Shown here: piece after piece, positions 9,157 to 61,405 of the stretch
How positions within the stretch are numbered: position 1 is the stretch's first letter
How the letters are laid out: each line of letters opens with the position of its first letter
NCBI GenBank assembly: GCA_020632535.1
Contig: JACKFJ010000007.1
Coordinates: forward strand, 13,749-77,748
Reading direction: 5' to 3'
Source of the DNA: Candidatus Omnitrophota bacterium
Lineage (GTDB): Bacteria; Omnitrophota; Gorgyraeia; Zapsychrales; JANLHA01
DNA: 64,000 bases
Made by a program: the position numbers and the translations under genes
The notes under the pieces: generated by a model
Databases searched by the model: none
Seen by the model: the letters and a program-made list of their open reading frames with translations, nothing else
What the model was told of the DNA's origin: nothing

Positions 9157-12100
9157 ATGACTCTTTTGAAGGATTTGTTGTGTCACAGAAGAATATTGAG
9201 TGGCAAAAAAATCATCGCTAGCTTTATTTTGGCTATCTTTTTTGTTTCCTCGATCACGCCAGTAGGGGCGCAAATGGTGCCCGTCTCGGGAACTCGCGTC
9301 GGTTTAATCTCTGGCCTCGCCACGGATGGGCTCGGCATTCCCTCGGACATCGCTTCGCGGTCCTCGGTCAGCTTCCAACCGCCTGTGCTTTTGGGTCTCA
9401 AAATTCATCCTGAGAATCCGCTATTGTTTGACTTTATCGTTGATCAAGGGGAAAGCAGACTTTCAGAGGACGATCTTAAAGCTGAAACTGAAAAGCTCGT
9501 AAAATATTTTCTTGCCGCGTTAACTATTCCTGATAAAGAAGTTTGGGTCAATTTGTCGCCTTATGAAAAAGACCGCATCATTCCTGATGTTTTGGGTCAG
9601 ACGACAATGGGTAAGACAATGCTTGAGCAAGATTATCTTTTAAAGCAATTAGCGTCTTCGCTTACTAATCCCGAAGAAAAGTTAGGACAGGAGTTTTGGG
9701 GTAAGGTGAAGGCACAAGTTGGTGGAAGTGATGTGCCAATGAATACGTTTAATAAAGTTTGGATTGTCCCGCAAAAAGCTGAAGTTTTAGAAAGCCAAGG
9801 CATTGTCTTGGTTGGCGAAAAACGTTTGAAAGTTATGATGGCGGATGACTACACTGCGATGAATATGTCATCCCCGCAATCTCAATCTCTGTCATCCCCG
9901 AATGCTCAATCTTTGTCATCCCCGCAATCTTTAAGCGGGGATCCACTGGCAAAGAATGGATTCCCGATTAAAGATTTCGGGAATGACAAAAATATTAAAG
10001 CATTCGGGAATGATAACAGCAACGTTTCCTCCCAAGTCTTTCGCGACGTGATCCTTCCTAACATCGAAAAGGAAATCAATGAAGGCAAGAATTTTGCTGA
10101 TGTTCGCCAGATTTATAATTCCGTCATTTTAGCCGCGTGGTATAAAAAAGCACTCAAGGAAAGTTTATTGGGAAAAGTTTACACTGACAAAGGTAAGGTC
10201 GCGGGCGTTGAAACCGATGACAAGGATATGAAGCAGAGAATTTATGAGCAATATTTGTCCGCGTTTAAGAAGGGCGTGTATAACCTTATTAAGGAAGAGT
10301 CTGATGTGATAAGTGGTGACATTATTCCTCGTAAGTATTTTTCGGGAGGAGAAAACTTTGCTGATGTCGCCAGTATCATTTCTTCGAGTACTGTAACATT
10401 GCCGCAGGCCGGACGTTTGATTTCTAATAAGAAAACTCAGCTAGCGAAGGTTCAGATGGCTTTGGAACAACATGAATTTGATCAATTGCAGAGTCGTGTT
10501 AATGTTATTGCGTCGACGGGTGTTTTTGAAAGAGATAACTACATTTTCTTAAGATCAGGAAAGCTTTTTGAAGAAATGCGCATAAATGATGTCAAGGAAT
10601 TGTCTCCGGTGGATGTAGATCCTAAAGACATGAACTTTATGTATCATGCTTTTAACCGCGTTTATGAGGCATTATCTAATCGCGTGATTGAAGAAATTAT
10701 TGCATATTTAAGTCAGAGAAATATTCCGGTAAATGATGGGGACATTACAATAGGTTTGACCGACAAAATTATTAGAGGTTTTGTAGAGAAAATTGTCACT
10801 GCTAAAAGTGAAGTACACAATGCTTGGATGCATGCCGCCCAATCAAATCCACTACGATGGAATACGAAAGAAGCAATTAAGAGTCGGTCAAATCAAATAT
10901 TGACAAGTGTTGGTTTAGGCGGTAGCCATCCATTGCATCCACGGATTAGCGAAAAACTTATTTTATCTTTGCTTGATCGTGAGTTTTTAAATAAATGGCA
11001 TAATATGAATAAACCGCCGGAAAGCGCTTCATCCTCAATCAGGCAAGATGAAAGACTTGCTCTTGGACCAATTGCGAATCAGTTTTTGACGAGATTTATG
11101 ACGCAGGAGGAAGCTCATCAAGTTCCTCAAGATATTCGGGATTTTGTGGCGGGATTATTGCGAGCGGCTTTCTTGGGTGGTGAGATTTGGTATGAAAAAG
11201 CAACTTTTGCGGATGGTGCGCAAGGTTATGCTGTGAAATTAAAACAAGGTTTTACAATTTTTGAGTATAAGGCTAATCAGGAAATATATCAAAAAATTGG
11301 TGTCTTGGATGCGCAAGAGGAATTCAATTTGGTTGTTTTAAAAGTATCGCCTGATTTTGTTCGGAGGATTGAGGAAGAAGGTGGCAAGCTTGCATCGCTT
11401 TATGAGAAACTTGCCTTTCAGCGTGGAGTCAAAACAGCCCTTGTTGATGTTGAAAGAAAGCGATTGATTTATACCATTTTGGACTCGCAGAACCCTGAGA
11501 ATTCTTTAAAGAATTTTGAAGATTTTGTTACAAAATTTGAACAAGAGGAATTGTTTTTTGCAGAGGTAGACGCGCACGCGCAGCAACTGGAAATTAGTCC
11601 GATTAGGGATGCCATGATAGAGGTTACCGGTAATGATGCGGCAATGCGGGAAGTATTGTTATTGACGTTTGATAGTCTGGAAAAGGCTTTTGGCAAAGAC
11701 ACGATATTCTTGAGTGGAGAATTTGACTATATCGGATTTCTTTATGCAATTAAGGCAGCTGTAAAAGAGGAGATGCAATTTACAGTTAATGATGAGAAGT
11801 CTAAAATTGATAGGAAGTATATGCTGATCAGTTTAGATTTGGCGAGCGGGATTTTGAATACCAATGATGTTCAAAAAGCAATTGCAGATTTTGGGACTTT
11901 TACAGAAAGTTTTCTAAATGATTTATTTGTAATCACTGACCGGGAAGTGTTGCGTGAGGATTTCGGAAAATTTGAATATATTGGTGCGGAAATTAACGCG
12001 CATTTTGATAAATTGCTGGCGATTTCAGGTGAAATTGAAGTCGCATTGCGCCAATATACGTATATTTTAGGAATGGCAGCGGGTTATTTGTCCGTCGCGT

Positions 12101-12738
12101 CGAGTTCTGCGGAGAGTGATCCGTATTTTAGTCATTTAAAACAGGGGATAGAGGATTTTACTGGTATCAGATATGAGGGGTATTATGTTGCAGGAATAAA
12201 AGGAATTAGCGATACAGATAAATATAAGGCCGCCGTGCAGTTGTTGGATCCGAACGGCACGGGAAATGAAGCGGAATATCAAATCGAAAATTTAGTTAGC
12301 GCAATTCAAGAAGCCGTTTCTGCGCATGCAGAGAAGGCTGGTCAAGATCTTTCTGATTTTGATAAGAGGAATTTAGTAAGAAATTCGCGCTATTTTGTTG
12401 ATCAGTTTATTGGGTTTGTTGAAAATAATCCTCCGATAATTTCATCGAGCGGGGTGACCACTGAGCAATCCAAGATAGTAGCTTCCGCCCCGACAATTGA
12501 GCGCGTCGGTGGTATCGACTTTGACCCGACGAATATGAATTTGCAAATTAAGCGTGATGGGCGCGGTGTGCCGCTGCCATTGCCACAACAGAATTTGGAA
12601 CAGATCAATATTCAAGGTTTATTTCCAGTCATTATTAATATCGTGCCTGTTAACGCGCAGACTTTGCCGATCTTTTTAGGTCAAGCTCCTGCGGAACCAG
12701 CGAGAGAACCAGAGTTGGCGATGAGTACGGTGAGTTAA
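9157..12738 (+). CDS. 1193-aa exported or membrane-anchored protein of unknown function
   Basis: Longest ORF in the window, with a GGAGAGGA SD. The N-terminal hydrophobic signal or anchor is IIASFILAIFFVSSITPVGAQ. I recognised no catalytic motif. The termini look conserved (PPVLLGLKIHPENPLLFDFIVDQGE...RKYFSGGENF at the N-end; GGIDFDPTNMNLQIKRDGRGVPLPLPQQ at the C-end). Confidence 0.85.
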   Translation: MTLLKDLLCHRRILSGKKIIASFILAIFFVSSITPVGAQMVPVSGTRVGLISGLATDGLGIPSDIASRSSVSFQPPVLLGLKIHPENPLLFDFIVDQGESRLSEDDLKAETEKLVKYFLAALTIPDKEVWVNLSPYEKDRIIPDVLGQTTMGKTMLEQDYLLKQLASSLTNPEEKLGQEFWGKVKAQVGGSDVPMNTFNKVWIVPQKAEVLESQGIVLVGEKRLKVMMADDYTAMNMSSPQSQSLSSPNAQSLSSPQSLSGDPLAKNGFPIKDFGNDKNIKAFGNDNSNVSSQVFRDVILPNIEKEINEGKNFADVRQIYNSVILAAWYKKALKESLLGKVYTDKGKVAGVETDDKDMKQRIYEQYLSAFKKGVYNLIKEESDVISGDIIPRKYFSGGENFADVASIISSSTVTLPQAGRLISNKKTQLAKVQMALEQHEFDQLQSRVNVIASTGVFERDNYIFLRSGKLFEEMRINDVKELSPVDVDPKDMNFMYHAFNRVYEALSNRVIEEIIAYLSQRNIPVNDGDITIGLTDKIIRGFVEKIVTAKSEVHNAWMHAAQSNPLRWNTKEAIKSRSNQILTSVGLGGSHPLHPRISEKLILSLLDREFLNKWHNMNKPPESASSSIRQDERLALGPIANQFLTRFMTQEEAHQVPQDIRDFVAGLLRAAFLGGEIWYEKATFADGAQGYAVKLKQGFTIFEYKANQEIYQKIGVLDAQEEFNLVVLKVSPDFVRRIEEEGGKLASLYEKLAFQRGVKTALVDVERKRLIYTILDSQNPENSLKNFEDFVTKFEQEELFFAEVDAHAQQLEISPIRDAMIEVTGNDAAMREVLLLTFDSLEKAFGKDTIFLSGEFDYIGFLYAIKAAVKEEMQFTVNDEKSKIDRKYMLISLDLASGILNTNDVQKAIADFGTFTESFLNDLFVITDREVLREDFGKFEYIGAEINAHFDKLLAISGEIEVALRQYTYILGMAAGYLSVASSSAESDPYFSHLKQGIEDFTGIRYEGYYVAGIKGISDTDKYKAAVQLLDPNGTGNEAEYQIENLVSAIQEAVSAHAEKAGQDLSDFDKRNLVRNSRYFVDQFIGFVENNPPIISSSGVTTEQSKIVASAPTIERVGGIDFDPTNMNLQIKRDGRGVPLPLPQQNLEQINIQGLFPVIINIVPVNAQTLPIFLGQAPAEPAREPELAMSTVS
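9867..10016. repeat. palindromic MITE/REP-like element (copy A), in-frame inside the giant ORF
   Basis: Three 24-nt tandem units start with GTCATCCCCG (9867, 9891, 9915). They are followed by hairpins ATCCCCGC-N9-GCGGGGAT (9918-9942) and ATTCCCGA-N9-TCGGGAAT (9960-9984) and a half copy (9997-10013). The same modules occur at 36642-36751 and 61307-61379. Confidence 0.8.
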
Positions 12739-35473: not shown

Positions 35474-36631
35474 ATGACTAAAATCATTATGCATGTGGAT
35501 CTCGACGCGTTTTTTGCTGCGGTTGAGCAACGCGACAATCCACGATTACGCGGCAAGCCGGTTGTTGTCGGCGCTGATCCTAAAGAAGGCCGCGGACGCG
35601 GTGTTGTTTCGACATGCTCGTATGAAGCGCGTCAGTTTGGAATTCACTCCGCAATGCCAATTTCGAAGGCGTATCAATTGTGTTCTACCGCGATTTTCTT
35701 AGCTCCCAATTTTGAGAAATACAGTAAGGCCTCTCGCGCTGTTTTTAAAATATTTTATGATTTTACGCCTCATATAGAAGGGATTAGCATTGACGAAGCA
35801 TTTTTGGACATGACGACGACGTACCATTTATTCGGTACATCTGTTCAGGCGGCAGAACGGTTAAAAAAGCGGATTAAGGATGAGGTGGGTTTGACGGCGT
35901 CGGTCGGTTTGGCACCAGTTAAAATGGTGGCCAAGATTGCGTCTGATTTATCAAAGCCTGATGGCCTGTTGGAAGTCAATGAAAAGGATGTCATTTCATT
36001 TTTGGCGCCTTTGAAAATTGAGCGTCTTTGGGGTGTGGGGCCTAAGACCGCAGAATCTCTGCATCAATTGGGAGTAAAAACAATTGGGGATTTGGGTGCT
36101 ATGTCCCGTGAGCAATTGATACAGCAATTTGGCGAAAGCGGTGGACATTTGTATAATTTGTCGCGCGGTATAGATCCTCGTGATGTCGTCGAGGATACTG
36201 ATGTTAAGTCGGTCAGTCATGAGCATACTTTTGACCAAGACACATCGAATGCCGAGCAAGTTTTAACTATTATGCTGGGTTTAAGCGAACAGGTGTCAAG
36301 GCGCTTGCGAAAGTACAACTTGAAAGCGCGAACTATCACGGTTAAAATACGCTTGCAAGGATTTCAAACTTATACTCGTGCGGAAACTTTGAGTGAACGA
36401 ACTAATTTTACTGATATTATTTTTCAAAAAGCAAAGGGAATTTTTAAAAAGTTCTTTAAGACCAATATGAAAATTCGGTTGATTGGCGTGAAAGCTAATC
36501 ATTTTGATGATGCTTATGTTCAGGAAAGTTTGTTTGTAAATTCGATGAATGAACGACGAGAAAAGATTCACAACGTTTTGGATCGGATCAAAGATAAATT
36601 TGGCGAAGATGTGATTGGACGTGGGAAGTAA
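35474..36631 (+). CDS. dinB: DNA polymerase IV
   Basis: IMHVDLDAFFAAVEQRDNP, SIDEAFLD and the little-finger region. ATG at 35474; the track start at 35459 is a GTG. Confidence 0.9.
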   Translation: MTKIIMHVDLDAFFAAVEQRDNPRLRGKPVVVGADPKEGRGRGVVSTCSYEARQFGIHSAMPISKAYQLCSTAIFLAPNFEKYSKASRAVFKIFYDFTPHIEGISIDEAFLDMTTTYHLFGTSVQAAERLKKRIKDEVGLTASVGLAPVKMVAKIASDLSKPDGLLEVNEKDVISFLAPLKIERLWGVGPKTAESLHQLGVKTIGDLGAMSREQLIQQFGESGGHLYNLSRGIDPRDVVEDTDVKSVSHEHTFDQDTSNAEQVLTIMLGLSEQVSRRLRKYNLKARTITVKIRLQGFQTYTRAETLSERTNFTDIIFQKAKGIFKKFFKTNMKIRLIGVKANHFDDAYVQESLFVNSMNERREKIHNVLDRIKDKFGEDVIGRGK

Positions 36632-36641
36632 AGCTAGTCTT

Positions 36642-36751
36642 GTCATTCCCGCATGCTTTTAGCGGGAATCCATGGATGTGCATGGATCCTCGCTTACAGC
36701 ATTCGAGGATGACAGAAGAATGGATCCCCGATAAAAGATTTCGGGGATGAC
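36642..36751. repeat. palindromic MITE/REP-like element (copy B), intergenic dinB-rmuC
   Basis: Hairpins ATTCCCGC-N9-GCGGGAAT (36645-36669), CCATG-N6-CATGG (36670-36685), ATCCTCG-N11-CGAGGAT (36686-36710) and ATCCCCGA-N9-TCGGGGAT (36724-36748). The termini GTCATTCCCG / CGGGGATGAC are inverted repeats. Confidence 0.85.
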
Positions 36752-36770
36752 AAATCAAAGAGAGGTTTTT

Positions 36771-44091: not shown

Positions 44092-44173
44092 AAAAAGTAG
44101 GGACAGTTCCTGCATTTCTTCGTGATCTTTCCGGGATGGTTTTACGCGAAAACAAAATTTTGATGGTATATCT

Positions 44174-44245
44174 TGCCCGGTGGTGTAATCGGTAACACAC
44201 GAGAATTTGGATCTCGTTTTCCAGGTTCGAGCCCTGGCTGGGCAG
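44174..44245 (+). tRNA. tRNA-Gln (anticodon UUG)
   Basis: Hand-folded cloverleaf. Acceptor stem TGCCCGG/CTGGGCA (one G-U), D stem GTGT/ACAC, anticodon stem CGAGA/TCTCG with loop ATTTGGA, a 4-nt variable loop, T arm CCAGG-TTCGAGC-CCTGG, discriminator G. CCA is not encoded. Confidence 0.85.
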
Positions 44246-44278
44246 TATTAAAAAAATATGTGGTTCAAAGCTCATTGA

Positions 44279-44575
44279 GTGAAAAGAAAACCCGCACAGA
44301 AGAAAAAGATTGTTAAGAAAAAATTGTCGTGGTGTGTGTATGTTTTAGAGTGCGCGAACGGCGACTTGTATACCGGCATCACCGGCGATCTTCAGCGAAG
44401 ATTTAAACAGCATCAAAGCGGCAATGGCGGAAAATTTACTAGGACGTTTGGAGCAAAAGAAATTCTTTATTTCGAAAAATCATCTGGCCGCAGTCAGGCG
44501 CTCAAACGGGAATTTGAAATCAAAAGTTTGTCGCGAAAAAAGAAATTAGAATTGGTTAGCAGAAAGTTATTGTGA
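44279..44575 (+). CDS. GIY-YIG nuclease-family protein (UPF0213/YhbQ-like)
   Basis: WCVYVLECANGDLYTGITGDLQRRFKQHQSG...E.KSL motifs. GTG start with a Lys-rich N-terminal extension; the start is uncertain. Confidence 0.75.
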   Translation: MKRKPAQKKKIVKKKLSWCVYVLECANGDLYTGITGDLQRRFKQHQSGNGGKFTRTFGAKEILYFEKSSGRSQALKREFEIKSLSRKKKLELVSRKLL

Positions 44576-45837
44576 TGAGTTCTTTAGCGACGATTATTTT
44601 GGCGGCAGGTAAAGGAACGCGGATGAAATCCGCCCTTCCCAAAGTCCTTCACGAAGTTTGCGGTCGATCCCTTATTGAACATGTTTTAGATATTAGTCGA
44701 CAACTGGGTTCTTTAAAGACATGCATTGTGCTTGGGCACGGGATTGAAAAAGTTCAAGCCCATTTGCCAAAGAATATTTTGACCGTCGAGCAAAAAAAAC
44801 TTTTAGGCACCGGCGACGCTGTTAAAATTACGGAAAAGATTTTTCAGAGTTTTCAGGGCGATATTTTGATTTTGTGTGGAGACACCCCACTTTTAAAAGT
44901 TGAAACCATTCGTTCATTGATCAAAAAACATCGTAGTGCCAAAGCTGTCGCCACGGTTTTGACGGCGGTTGTTGAGGATAGCCGTGGATATGGTCGCATG
45001 ATTCGTGATCATCATGGGAATGTTATTGCCATTCGTGAAGAAAACGATTGTGACGAGCTCGAACGAAATATCAAGGAAATCAATTCTGGTGTTTTTTGTT
45101 TCAATGCCAAGGTGCTATTTGAAAATTTACGCAAGATCAAAGTTAATTCAGATAAAGGCGAATATTATTTGACGGATTTGATTGCTCTTCTTGCCGTGAA
45201 AGATTTGCGAATCGAGACGGTCACAACATCTGAGTCCGCTGAAGGCTTGGGTGTTAATACCCGGCAGGATTTGGCTGCCTGCGCGGCAGTCATGAGGCAG
45301 CGGATTTTGAAAGATTTGATGTTAAGTGGTGTGACCATCATTGATCCTGCGACAACACATATTGCTGTGGATGTGAAAATCGGAATCGAAACCGTGATCA
45401 AACCTTTTACGGTGATCGAAAATCACGTTGTTATCGGGAAAAATTGTATTGTCGGGCCTTTCGCGCATCTTCGTCCCGGCACATGCGTTGATGATAACGT
45501 TGAGATCGGAAATTTTGCTGAAGTTTCACGAACCACGGTTGGAAGCGGTACGTTTGTTAAGCATTTTAGTTTTTTGGGTGACGCAATTGTCGGGAGAAAT
45601 GTTAATATCGGTGCCGGCACAATTACCGCAAATTACAATGGTGTAGAGAAGAGTCGAACTGTCATCGGTGACGGAGCTTTTATTGGATCGGATTCGATTT
45701 TGGTCGCGCCGGTCAAAATTGGCAAAAAAGCGATGACTGGAGCCGGATCAGTTGTGACGGCCGGTAAAATTGTCCCTGATGGGAAAATTTTTGTAGGTGT
45801 GCCGGCGAGAATGGTGCCGGGGAGAAATAGAAAATAA
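44572..45837 (+). CDS. glmU: bifunctional UDP-N-acetylglucosamine pyrophosphorylase / GlcN-1-P N-acetyltransferase
   Basis: LAAGKGTRMKSALPKVLH, LCGDTPL, and the C-terminal hexapeptide-repeat domain; 421 aa (slightly short). Confidence 0.85.
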   Translation: MMSSLATIILAAGKGTRMKSALPKVLHEVCGRSLIEHVLDISRQLGSLKTCIVLGHGIEKVQAHLPKNILTVEQKKLLGTGDAVKITEKIFQSFQGDILILCGDTPLLKVETIRSLIKKHRSAKAVATVLTAVVEDSRGYGRMIRDHHGNVIAIREENDCDELERNIKEINSGVFCFNAKVLFENLRKIKVNSDKGEYYLTDLIALLAVKDLRIETVTTSESAEGLGVNTRQDLAACAAVMRQRILKDLMLSGVTIIDPATTHIAVDVKIGIETVIKPFTVIENHVVIGKNCIVGPFAHLRPGTCVDDNVEIGNFAEVSRTTVGSGTFVKHFSFLGDAIVGRNVNIGAGTITANYNGVEKSRTVIGDGAFIGSDSILVAPVKIGKKAMTGAGSVVTAGKIVPDGKIFVGVPARMVPGRNRK

Positions 45838-61296: not shown

Positions 61297-61306
61297 AAAT
61301 ATCAAT

Positions 61307-61379
61307 GTCATTCCCGCAATCTTTGAGCGGGAATCCATGTTTTTAAAATGGATCCCCGATAAGAGCATTCGGGGATGAC
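61307..61379. repeat. palindromic MITE/REP-like element (copy C), intergenic lysS-lolC/E
   Basis: ATTCCCGC-N9-GCGGGAAT (61310-61334) and ATCCCCGA-N9-TCGGGGAT (61352-61376). The termini GTCATTCCCG / CGGGGATGAC are inverted. Confidence 0.85.
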
Positions 61380-61405
61380 AGGGATAGAAAAAATATAAGG
61401 GAATC

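Follow-up and report, generated by a model that had tools for sequence, protein, structure and literature searches.

The window analysed here, a 64-kb stretch of DNA from a Candidatus Omnitrophica MAG, carries the same palindromic repeat at three loci, as seven hairpin modules. Two of the loci lie between genes, and the third lies within a protein-coding gene, H6754_07785 (Table 1). At 1193 aa, the product of this gene is large, rather than giant as the first-pass annotation had labelled it. The protein begins with a sequence resembling a signal peptide. Its N-terminal domain (~380 aa) and its C-terminal module (~70 aa; GGIDFDPTNMNLQIKRDG...PVIINI) are conserved, and the region between them is variable; its 4219 homologues have in common only the N- and C-terminal modules. 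A search of the host protein against Pfam returned no family, and a model of the N-terminal domain had no match among PDB folds. The host is a secreted or membrane (surface-type) protein, and it belongs to a large family of Omnitrophota paralogues.

Table 1. Coordinates of the host gene, the repeat elements and the GIY-YIG gene in the window.
Feature	Position	Strand	Basis
Host gene H6754_07785, 1193 aa	9157..12738	+	Translation; 100% match to P0001
Extra 5' half copies of hairpin 1, two x 24 nt (GTCATCCCCG...)	9867..9914	+	Tandem-repeat analysis
Core two-hairpin element, 73 nt	9915..9987	+	Inverted repeats, covariance-model matches, SRM pattern
Duplicated 3' half of hairpin 2, 27-nt period, in frame	9988..10016	+	Direct/inverted repeats, fold
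Intergenic copy B, three hairpin modules, between dinB and rmuC	36642..36751	+	Covariance-model matches
Single-domain GIY-YIG protein, 98 aa	44279..44575	+	Pfam PF01541, E 3.6e-17
Intergenic copy C, canonical 73-nt two-hairpin element	61307..61379	+	Covariance-model matches

The first-pass annotation had described an in-frame palindromic repeat at 9867-10016 of the 1193-aa ORF, and every feature it listed lies where it was placed: three 24-nt tandem units (9866/7-9937; TRF period 24, 2.7 copies); a first hairpin, ATCCCCGC-N9-GCGGGGAT, at 9918-9942, and a second, ATTCCCGA-N9-TCGGGAAT, at 9960-9984, each with an 8 bp stem that is 100% complementary; and a 3' half copy at 9994-10016 that is offset by 27 nt from 9967-9989 and 87% identical to it. 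The Ser/Pro/Gly/Asn-rich translation quoted for the segment is also exact. Including its T...A flanks, the core element is 75 nt long (25 codons), has the termini TGTCAT...ATGACA, and carries hairpin 2 in inverted orientation to hairpin 1; the two hairpins score 49.5 bits (9912-9947, forward strand) and 52.6 bits (9955-9990, reverse strand) with a covariance model. The 5' duplication is in frame and lineage-specific, being missing from the orthologous element in another genome (L004), which does have a half copy matching the one at the 3' end. In the predicted fold, the 3' duplication pairs with the second 24-nt unit, and 9867-10016 as a whole makes up one long, composite hairpin with an MFE of -65.9 kcal/mol (z = -8.2). 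The 75-nt core, the two 24-nt duplications and the one 27-nt duplication are all multiples of three, and only one of the six frames of 9867-10016 is free of stop codons, namely that of the host gene. Conservation of the frame suggests that the insert is translated into protein; its peptide, which contains SSPQSQSLSSPNAQSL...FGNDN, is probably a passive linker.

A resemblance between the segment and two intergenic elements had been proposed, and it is well beyond chance. The motif GTCATYCCCG occurs eight times in the window, with 0.17 occurrences expected, and none of 100 shuffles reached eight. We scanned the window with a hairpin covariance model built solely from unrelated metagenomic copies, and recovered exactly seven hairpin modules (E values from 2e-13 to 6e-6; next-best match, E 0.36): the segment holds two of them, 36639-36754 three and 61304-61382 two. 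The repeat unit, (T)GTCAT-YCCCGM-loop9-KCGGGR-ATCC, occurs as an inverted doublet of ~73 nt, and the 73-nt core of the segment corresponds to copy C module for module. We refer to this hairpin family, which starts GTCAT, as family A. Copies B and C both lie between genes, as had been claimed, with C flanked by a class-II aaRS gene and an FtsX/MacB-type permease gene. Considered as intrinsic terminators, copy B lacks a terminator-like appearance by prediction, and prediction gives no terminator within copy C. Scanning the segment against Rfam gave no family at the gathering score; at relaxed thresholds the sole matches, on both strands, were to plant miRNA-precursor models, because the segment is a long hairpin.

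For the repeat family the first-pass annotation gave no known description, but its stem and flanks are those of the Neisseria NTS/dRS3 repeats and it fits the published pattern of the Ssn-related motif (SRM), HGTCWYN(0-2)YYVSBRHN(0-5)WNVSBRGN(0-2)RNCYNB (PMC11893778). The NTS sequence CGTCATTCCCGCG..CGCGGGAATCYRG and the window hairpin TGTCATTCCCGC..GCGGGAATCCAT have identical stems and flanks. The SRM pattern has three matches in the window (9914-9946, 36641-36673 and 61306-61338), compared with a mean of 0.025 in 40 Markov-2 simulations. NTS/SRM sequences are substrates of SsnA-type GIY-YIG single-strand DNA nucleases, and for cleavage or binding by SsnA the GTC directly 5' of the palindrome and the C directly 3' of it are critical (PMC11893778); all seven window hairpins have the form GTC-AT...AT-CC. 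NTS/SRM repeats and the window repeat are alike in being hairpin-forming and dispersed. They differ in that the loop is 9 nt long in the window repeat and ~4-5 nt in NTS, and in that the window repeats, unlike NTS, are inverted doublets, occur in Omnitrophota, and are embedded and translated in genes. In a metagenome contig from another organism (L176), a GIY-YIG gene is embedded in arrays of these hairpins. Ssn genes are small, belong to the cd10448 type of GIY-YIG genes and typically have the repeats on either flank; no cd10448-type gene was identified in the 64 kb of the genome covered here. The window does encode a GIY-YIG protein, whose candidacy as a hairpin-repeat nuclease is by analogy only; among solved structures it is closest to the UPF0213 proteins 1zg2 and 1ywl, and no hairpin repeat lies within 1.2 kb of its gene in either direction.

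Differences between copies of the repeat are compensatory, as the first-pass annotation had pointed out: hairpin 1 of the segment has the stem TCCCCGC/GCGGGGA where the intergenic copies have TTCCCGC/GCGGGAA, and the other hairpin shows the reciprocal change. The middle hairpin of copy B adds a third compensated variant, ATCCTCG/CGAGGAT. The compensation, from which selection on the stems had been argued, holds family-wide, with Watson-Crick pairing at the variable Y-R pair in 127 of 131 cases (Fisher p = 2e-25) and at the inner variable pair in 126 of 131. Overall, paired cells make up 99.3%. The covariation score, 0.215, was reached by none of 500 shuffles, which gave 0.080. Coding copies also keep their stems: the L004 copy has 8/8 pairs in both hairpins despite a changed closing pair and a changed loop length, and the stems of another copy (L056), GTCCCCGA/TCGGGGAC and ATGCCCGA/TCGGGCAT, are compensated.

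Comparison with homologues indicates that the segment is an indel, as had been supposed. Four proteins with 86-90% core identity to the host protein (P0004, P0006, P0007 and P0011) have a loop of 32 aa where the host has 70 aa, and DNA alignments with close homologues put the surplus at ~114 bases. P0003, the nearest relative in another genome (93% core identity), is without the window element and has a different palindromic insert in the same position; we detected no family-A hairpin in the 24.5 kb of its genome that we examined. The reading frame is preserved, also as claimed, with the conserved domain read in one frame before and after the insert and 99 of 100 homologous loops in frame at the DNA level. 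In an AlphaFold2 model, residues 242-284 have pLDDT <50 and no secondary structure, and sit between helices 229-244 and 286-298, with the flanking core at pLDDT 86-93. In this model, the insert occupies a predicted disordered loop that is compatible with the fold of the N-terminal domain.

The L004 element described above lies in the same position as that of the window gene. The two elements are identical at 31 of 33 nt. The coding DNA on either side is itself ~80% identical, so the elements do not clearly stand out, and identity alone cannot date the insertion. By contrast, the 3' half copy is found in both genes, which argues for common descent. A paralogue in the same genome (P0002) is 100% identical to the host protein (P0001) over residues 54-398, including the insert; the identical tract passes straight through the hairpins and ends at the domain border, at about residue 398. 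On these sequence comparisons, the element predates the split between the host gene and its L004 orthologue, and the element, together with the entire N-terminal module, has been copied into a second gene of the same genome. The insertion is not a recent one confined to the host gene.

Translated palindromic repeats in the same loop are widespread in the protein family. Roughly 52 of 120 homologues have one, and at least six repeat types are represented; loop types were assigned with hand-made peptide-motif patterns, such that these classes are approximate, and the protein alignment comprised 30 sequences. The density of perfect hairpins is 2.25 per kb in the loops, compared with 0.29-0.30 per kb elsewhere in the genes, and long variable regions of the same genes have no hairpin excess. 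Of the 71 repeat-motif matches in the 1.2 Mb sampled, 41 fall within ~3% of the sequence. Two further loops of the N-terminal domain also carry repeats. Among 120 metagenome loci that were selected for the hairpin, one has a gene of the host family, and there the hairpin lies exactly in the same loop. In one homologous locus (L072), the reading frame is shifted, and the repeat contains a stray duplicate of part of the upstream coding sequence. The content of the loop changes much faster than the domain core, as P0003 illustrates with a different repeat type at 93% core identity. Many members of the family have no repeat in the loop, and A-type loops are dispersed across the similarity tree of the homologues. 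Nearly all coding family-A copies consist of a C-type hairpin followed by a T-type hairpin, and this uniform order suggests spread with the paralogues, or exchange of loops, rather than many independent transpositions. Targeted insertion or a function, as opposed to mere tolerance, could account for the concentration of repeats in a single protein family. We found no literature on palindromic repeats in Omnitrophota, or on GIY-YIG proteins tied to Rickettsia palindromic elements (RPEs).

We consider it likely that the segment is a translated, in-frame, two-hairpin repeat of the NTS/SRM-REP type, located in an unstructured loop of the N-terminal domain of an Omnitrophota protein that has many paralogues. 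The distribution of the repeats suggests that they are mobile. We propose that they spread, or are homogenised, as hairpins of single-strand DNA through the action of a trans-acting enzyme, for which an Ssn-type GIY-YIG nuclease or a RAYT-like transposase would be the obvious candidate. Copies in coding DNA would be lost unless the protein can tolerate them and the frame remains open. The host loop and the two other loops of the same domain may be such permissive sites, and would therefore accumulate and exchange repeats of several families.

An alternative possibility is that the repeats have been exapted, with the cell using the hairpins either as sites that an Ssn-type nuclease would recognise or cleave and that shape recombination or gene conversion among paralogues, or as a device to vary an exposed surface loop rapidly. 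A parallel would be Neisseria, in which NTS cluster around the genes for variable antigens and NTS repeats modulate recombination (PMC11893778). Exaptation is consistent with the concentration of repeats in three loops of one surface-type protein family, the rapid turnover of loop content and dispersal of A-type loops across the similarity tree, the intact stems of the L004 and L056 coding copies, and the very recent copying of the N-terminal module between the P0001 and P0002 genes. Nonetheless, the identity between those two genes continues through the hairpins and stops at a domain border rather than at a repeat, the GIY-YIG gene in the window is UPF0213-like and has no flanking hairpins, and many family members have repeat-free loops. 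We consider exaptation unlikely. In a stronger form, which we regard as at least as doubtful, the loops of the N-terminal domain would be dedicated landing pads for NTS/REP-type hairpins, which the cell would use, via an Ssn-like nuclease or a repeat-mobilising enzyme, for rapid loop replacement and the exchange of modules among dozens of paralogues.

We also considered a role at the RNA level, in which an mRNA hairpin of ~125 nt would, for example, pause translation or be processed by an RNase, so that the N-terminal domain is made separately from the rest of the protein. The stability of the predicted structure and the sub-threshold matches to models of long-hairpin miRNA precursors on both strands would fit such a role. 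However, the two strands fold equally well, which is what a palindrome in DNA would give; the same element also occurs between genes, with hairpins in both orientations; and homologues manage without it. Moreover, in 190 cells for the two variable stem pairs there are 2 U-G wobble pairs and 5 non-pairing combinations, with all others being Watson-Crick. These observations make an RNA-level role very improbable. It is more improbable still that slippage and duplication produced the segment locally, out of ordinary loop sequence, and that it shares short motifs alone with the intergenic elements, since, although the 24-nt and 27-nt tandem duplications indicate that slippage is active at the site, this is contradicted by the module-for-module correspondence of the 73-nt core to copy C, by scores of 49-53 bits with a model built from unrelated metagenomic copies, by the SRM match, and by the absence of the segment from close homologues. 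We give equally little credence to an assembly or gene-calling artefact, i.e. a repeat-induced chimeric join in the MAG that created a false ORF: repeats can cause misjoins, and L072 has a frameshift and a stray duplicated piece, but ~100 independent assemblies have the domain running in frame through both flanks of the loop, L004 has the orthologous element in the same position, and the identity between P0001 and P0002 extends >100 residues past the insert.

To our knowledge, the RPEs of Rickettsia are essentially the only textbook case of palindromic repeats colonising genes in frame. The repeat described here extends such colonisation to an uncultured phylum of free-living or host-associated bacteria, and ties in-frame palindromes to the recently characterised NTS/Ssn class of hairpins. 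RPEs (Ogata et al. 2000) are short palindromic repeats that occur both between genes and in frame within genes, according to a summary of that work (PMC10969869). As far as that summary describes them, RPEs resemble the window repeat in adding a peptide where the fold of the protein can accommodate it, with presence varying among orthologues; they differ in being longer, in occurring in Rickettsiales, and in being spread over many unrelated genes. The window element, by contrast, is ~73 nt long, has NTS-type hairpins, and is found in Omnitrophota, with at least six repeat types turning over in two or three loops. The window insert is RPE-like as a phenomenon of in-frame colonisation.

The pattern in this protein family is more focused than that of RPEs: three loops, in which at least six repeat types are swapped while the surrounding domain remains 60-90% identical. 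Since the same loop hosts several kinds of repeat across relatives, it illustrates how junk-like DNA becomes protein, making the system suitable for asking how selfish DNA turns into protein sequence, and also whether hairpin repeats and nucleases shape the evolution of paralogous surface proteins. If the loops did prove to be dedicated landing pads, this would be a case of repeat-powered diversification of exposed loops, uniting the Rickettsia palindromes and Neisseria NTS as one mechanism. For annotation, peptides such as SSPxxLSGDP, GFPxKxFGND, VIARSPQGDEAIS and TLDAGRSTLEK in MAG proteins are to be regarded as translated repeats, not domains.

Other bacterial repeats with in-frame insertions include the MITEs ERIC, BOX and Coxiella QMITE1 (PMC10969869). 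MITEs and the window element are alike in being non-autonomous, in having terminal inverted repeats, and in occasionally forming translational fusions with host ORFs. The window element is much shorter, and consists of two self-complementary hairpins. We know of no related autonomous insertion sequence for it. Across 30 elements, the base at -1 is T in 21 and the base at +1 is A in 23; none of the 30 has a target-site duplication at k of 4 or more, and flanking direct repeats are not above chance. Hence, despite the terminal inverted repeats, we rejected a classical MITE because of the absence of target-site duplications. REP/REPIN/BIME elements, which RAYT (Y1) transposases mobilise, are short imperfect palindromes, as is the window element. 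Scanning ~20 ORFs of the window against Pfam revealed no transposase or RAYT. Like REPINs, the window element is an inverted doublet that folds into a longer hairpin, without target-site duplication, and repeat arrays, as for REPs, occur in two contigs (L095 and L176). The GTAG head found at the 5' end of REPs is missing from family A, but some homologues have further palindromes in their first loop (GTAGGGAAC...GTTCCCTAC) that bear this head, as REPs do.

The segment at 9867-10016 is laid out exactly as the first-pass annotation had described: its 24-nt units, two hairpins and 3' half copy (Table) match the sequence, as does the translation quoted for it within the 1193-aa ORF at 9157-12738, and the 3' half of hairpin 2 is repeated 27 nt downstream. 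The proposal that two intergenic elements (36642-36751 and 61307-61379) are built from the same modules is also borne out. The decamer GTCATYCCCG occurs eight times in the window, where 0.17 occurrences are expected, and all eight sites fall in the segment or in these two elements; a covariance model built from 95 unrelated metagenomic hairpins picks out seven modules across the 64 kb (two in the segment, three in the first intergenic element and two in the second), with no further significant match. The fold of the segment as a single strand is a long composite hairpin (-65.9 kcal/mol, z = -8.2). Thirty-odd complete copies from the window and other loci define a unit of ~61-90 nt, consisting of two inverted hairpins with the consensus (T)GTCAT-YCCCGM-loop-KCGGGR-ATCC ... 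GGAT-YCCCGM-loop-KCGGGR-ATGAC(A); none of the collected copies of this repeat, which we call family A, is surrounded by a target-site duplication. Since the in-gene copy comprises a 75-nt core and duplications of 24 and 27 nt, each length change is a multiple of three.

Features of the in-gene repeat, the GIY-YIG gene, and the palindrome sites and types in homologous proteins
Feature	Coordinates	Strand	Details
Three tandem 24-nt units	within 9867-10016		start GTCATCCCCG; Tandem Repeats Finder: period 24, 2.7 copies
Hairpin 1	9918-9942		perfect, 8 bp, ATCCCCGC-N9-GCGGGGAT
Hairpin 2	9960-9984		perfect, ATTCCCGA-N9-TCGGGAAT
Canonical 73-nt core	9915-9987		75 nt with T/A flanks, 25 codons
Duplications of core 5' half			two, 24 nt each
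Duplication of core 3' half			one, 27 nt
Single-domain GIY-YIG protein	44279-44575	+	98 aa; between tRNA-Gln (44173-44246) and ORF 44572-45837
Second-loop sites	9700-9753; L004:10532-10570; L007, L009, L067, others		
Third site	L056:13780-13875		in-frame two-hairpin family A element between FILDRGDKGL and DEELKQEANKLIKYFLAAL
Type A			family A repeat; reads LSSPxxxxGDP...GFPxKxxGND
Type B			TGTCATTGCGAG...CTCGCAATGACA; reads VIARSPQGDEAIS / EIASxxxxARND
Type C			GGACGYTGGACG-type; reads TLDAGRSTLEK...NVQPPTSN
Type D			CCCCCTCTTTA...TAAAGAGGGGG
Type E			GGGGCGTATTGCAATACGCCCC
Type F			GGGACAGTCCC-type

Copies of the repeat are dispersed, and their stems are under constraint. In a metagenome pattern scan that left two variable stem positions free and returned at least 131 hairpins, 127 of 131 of the matches listed have a Watson-Crick Y/R pair (T-A 96, C-G 31; Fisher p = 2e-25) and 126 of 131 a Watson-Crick closing pair (A-T 68, C-G 58). 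Across the 95-sequence alignment, 99.3% of cells are paired and two pairs covary, with a covariation score of 0.215 against 0.080 in shuffles (0 of 500 shuffles reach 0.215). Coding copies follow the same pairing rule as the metagenomic hairpins; one coding copy, in locus L056, has doubly compensated stems, GTCCCCGA/TCGGGGAC and ATGCCCGA/TCGGGCAT. The earlier reading of stem differences as compensatory therefore holds.

We compared 120 aligned homologues of the host protein (H6754_07785) over the loop between "EKRLKVMM.EDY" and "SS.(V/I)FR". This loop is 70 aa in the host protein and 12-115 aa in homologues, and is 32 aa in four relatives with 86-90% core identity (P0004, P0006, P0007 and P0011); in DNA alignments with two homologous loci, L003 and L001, the window has about 114 extra bases. 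P0003, which at 93% core identity is nearest to the host protein among relatives in other genomes, has no family A element; its loop holds a different palindrome at that position, with arms CCATTGCGAG..GAAGCAATCTC / GAGATTGCTTC..CTCGCAATGG; no family A hairpin is found near its gene in 24.5 kb. Close homologues are thus without the element rather than carrying the same segment, in agreement with the proposed insertion.

The in-gene copy has been inherited, expanded in three-base steps and copied together with its domain. An orthologue from another genome (P0005, encoded at L004) contains a related element in the same position and frame, with the extra 3' half copy; the insertion is therefore older than the split of the two genes. 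The two additional 24-nt units are missing from the L004 element, hairpin 2 of which has a C-G closing pair and a 4-nt loop versus A-T and 9 nt in the window. Stems have stayed perfect throughout, and the 24-nt expansion is lineage-specific. A second gene of the same genome, H6754_00220 (P0002), is 100% identical to the host over residues 54-398, the whole insert included, and diverges from it completely past residue 398 (window 9157-10350 compared), which indicates that the N-terminal module was duplicated, or converted from one gene to the other, very recently.

The host protein, from a Candidatus Omnitrophica MAG, belongs to a family of 4219 database proteins (E <= 1e-5) that share a signal-peptide-like N-terminus, a ~380-aa N-terminal domain and a ~70-aa C-terminal module, with a variable middle region whose diverse domains include kinases, receiver domains and HEAT repeats. 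The host has no Pfam family, and a PDB fold search found no solved structure resembling the N-terminal domain. The C-terminal module (host residues ~1115-1193; GGIDFDPTNMNLQIKRDGxGVPLPLPQQ...GLxPVIINIxPV) is at the end of all members and may be a sorting or anchoring signal. An AlphaFold2 model from a 30-sequence alignment (mean pLDDT 66.8; core blocks 86-93) places the in-frame copy in a predicted disordered loop, in which residues 242-284, flanked by helices 229-244 and 286-298, are unstructured (pLDDT < 50).

Translated palindromes of at least six types (Table), verified in the DNA of fetched loci, are found in the homologous loop (window 9841-10050; L001-L079, L200). By approximate, hand-made peptide patterns, about 52 of the 120 homologues have at least one of the six types in the loop, and 15 of these have type A. 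In 99 loops the density of perfect hairpins (stem of at least 8 bp) is 2.25 per kb; the 600 nt on the upstream side have 0.30 per kb, the 3 kb on the downstream side 0.29 and all loci taken together 0.52. Of 71 matches to the motifs of the six repeat families in 1.2 Mb, 41 are in family loops, which make up ~3% of the sequence. Preservation of the reading frame, claimed for the host gene, extends across the family: 99 of 100 loops are in frame, and the host frame is the sole stop-free one of the segment, the other five all containing stops. In the homologous loop at L072:10610-10884 we observed a frameshift, with a partial copy of upstream coding sequence (AEVLES..VLVGEKQLQVM) inside a type B palindrome; the explanation is that the gene is a pseudogene, that a rearrangement took place at the repeat, or that the assembly is wrong there. 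The residues just before NKVWIVP form a second loop. In 75 of 98 homologues it is a 22-aa segment that is conserved, whereas the clade around the host protein has in-frame palindromes in its stead, such as GTAGGGAACAGGCATGCCTGTTCCCTAC with its REP-like GTAG head. A third site of the same domain, in the family member at L056, hosts a family A element (Table). Loop types scatter across a tree built on domain-core similarity and differ even between proteins with 93% core identity, so loop content turns over far faster than the domain. In an unbiased metagenome sample selected by hairpin, the only family-gene locus among the matches listed, L149, has its hairpin exactly in the loop.

The annotation knew of no description of the repeat family, but a full-text literature search with the terminal decamers led to one. 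The Neisseria NTS repeat, CGTCATTCCCGCGMAVGCGGGAATCYRG, encompasses dRS3 and is bound and cut as a single-strand DNA hairpin by SsnA, a 94-aa GIY-YIG protein (cd10448); binding depends on the C after the palindrome, and cleavage on the three bases before it (PMC11893778). The generalised form, the "Ssn-related motif" (SRM), occurs in many phyla, often flanking an ssn gene, and is abundant in symbionts, including Rickettsia and Wolbachia (PMC11893778). NTS shares its stem and flanks with the window hairpin TGTCATTCCCGC-N9-GCGGGAATCCAT, and the published SRM pattern has exactly three window matches, one per element (0.025 expected); the class is therefore an already described one, although the window repeat differs from NTS/SRM in its longer loop, doublet organisation, phylum and coding location. 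Hairpin-bearing metagenome loci range from 33 to 69% GC, so the hairpin class crosses lineages. The window also encodes a GIY-YIG protein (Table), whose nearest solved relatives are UPF0213 proteins; no hairpins flank its gene, and the ORF that follows is putatively glmU-like by appearance. A metagenome contig (L176:4800-6300) has a ~95-aa GIY-YIG gene, 36% identical to that of the window, with dense GGATTCCCGCTTTCGCGGGAATGAC-type hairpin arrays on both sides, a repeat-nuclease-repeat layout that matches the Ssn architecture (PMC11893778).

We propose that a trans-acting enzyme, with Ssn-like or RAYT-like enzymes as the known precedents, spreads or homogenises these repeats in single-strand hairpin form, and that coding insertions would persist only at permissive, frame-compatible places; the family loops would provide such places, with many targets per genome. 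Alternatively, the hairpins may serve the cell, for modulation of recombination or diversification of an exposed loop, an idea made attractive by the focus of the repeats on one protein family and the fast turnover of loop content. The single recent conversion tract observed, shared by the host and P0002, does not support it, as the tract passes through the hairpins and stops at the domain border. In-frame palindromic repeats and MITEs are known (RPEs, ERIC, BOX, QMITE1; PMC10969869), as is the hairpin class (PMC11893778). The literature searched contained nothing about Omnitrophota palindromic repeats or about translation of NTS-type hairpins inside genes. What is new, as far as can be told, is that several repeat families are concentrated in the hot-spot loops of a single family of paralogous surface proteins.

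The ORFs that precede the two intergenic copies end at 36631 and 61296; each copy starts exactly 11 nt later and takes up nearly all of the spacer before the next co-directional gene, and neither (36642, 61307) resembles an intrinsic terminator. Window genes are almost all on the + strand, as are all three SRM-pattern matches, and positions 1-64000 show a strong, uniformly positive GC skew of about +0.1 to +0.26.
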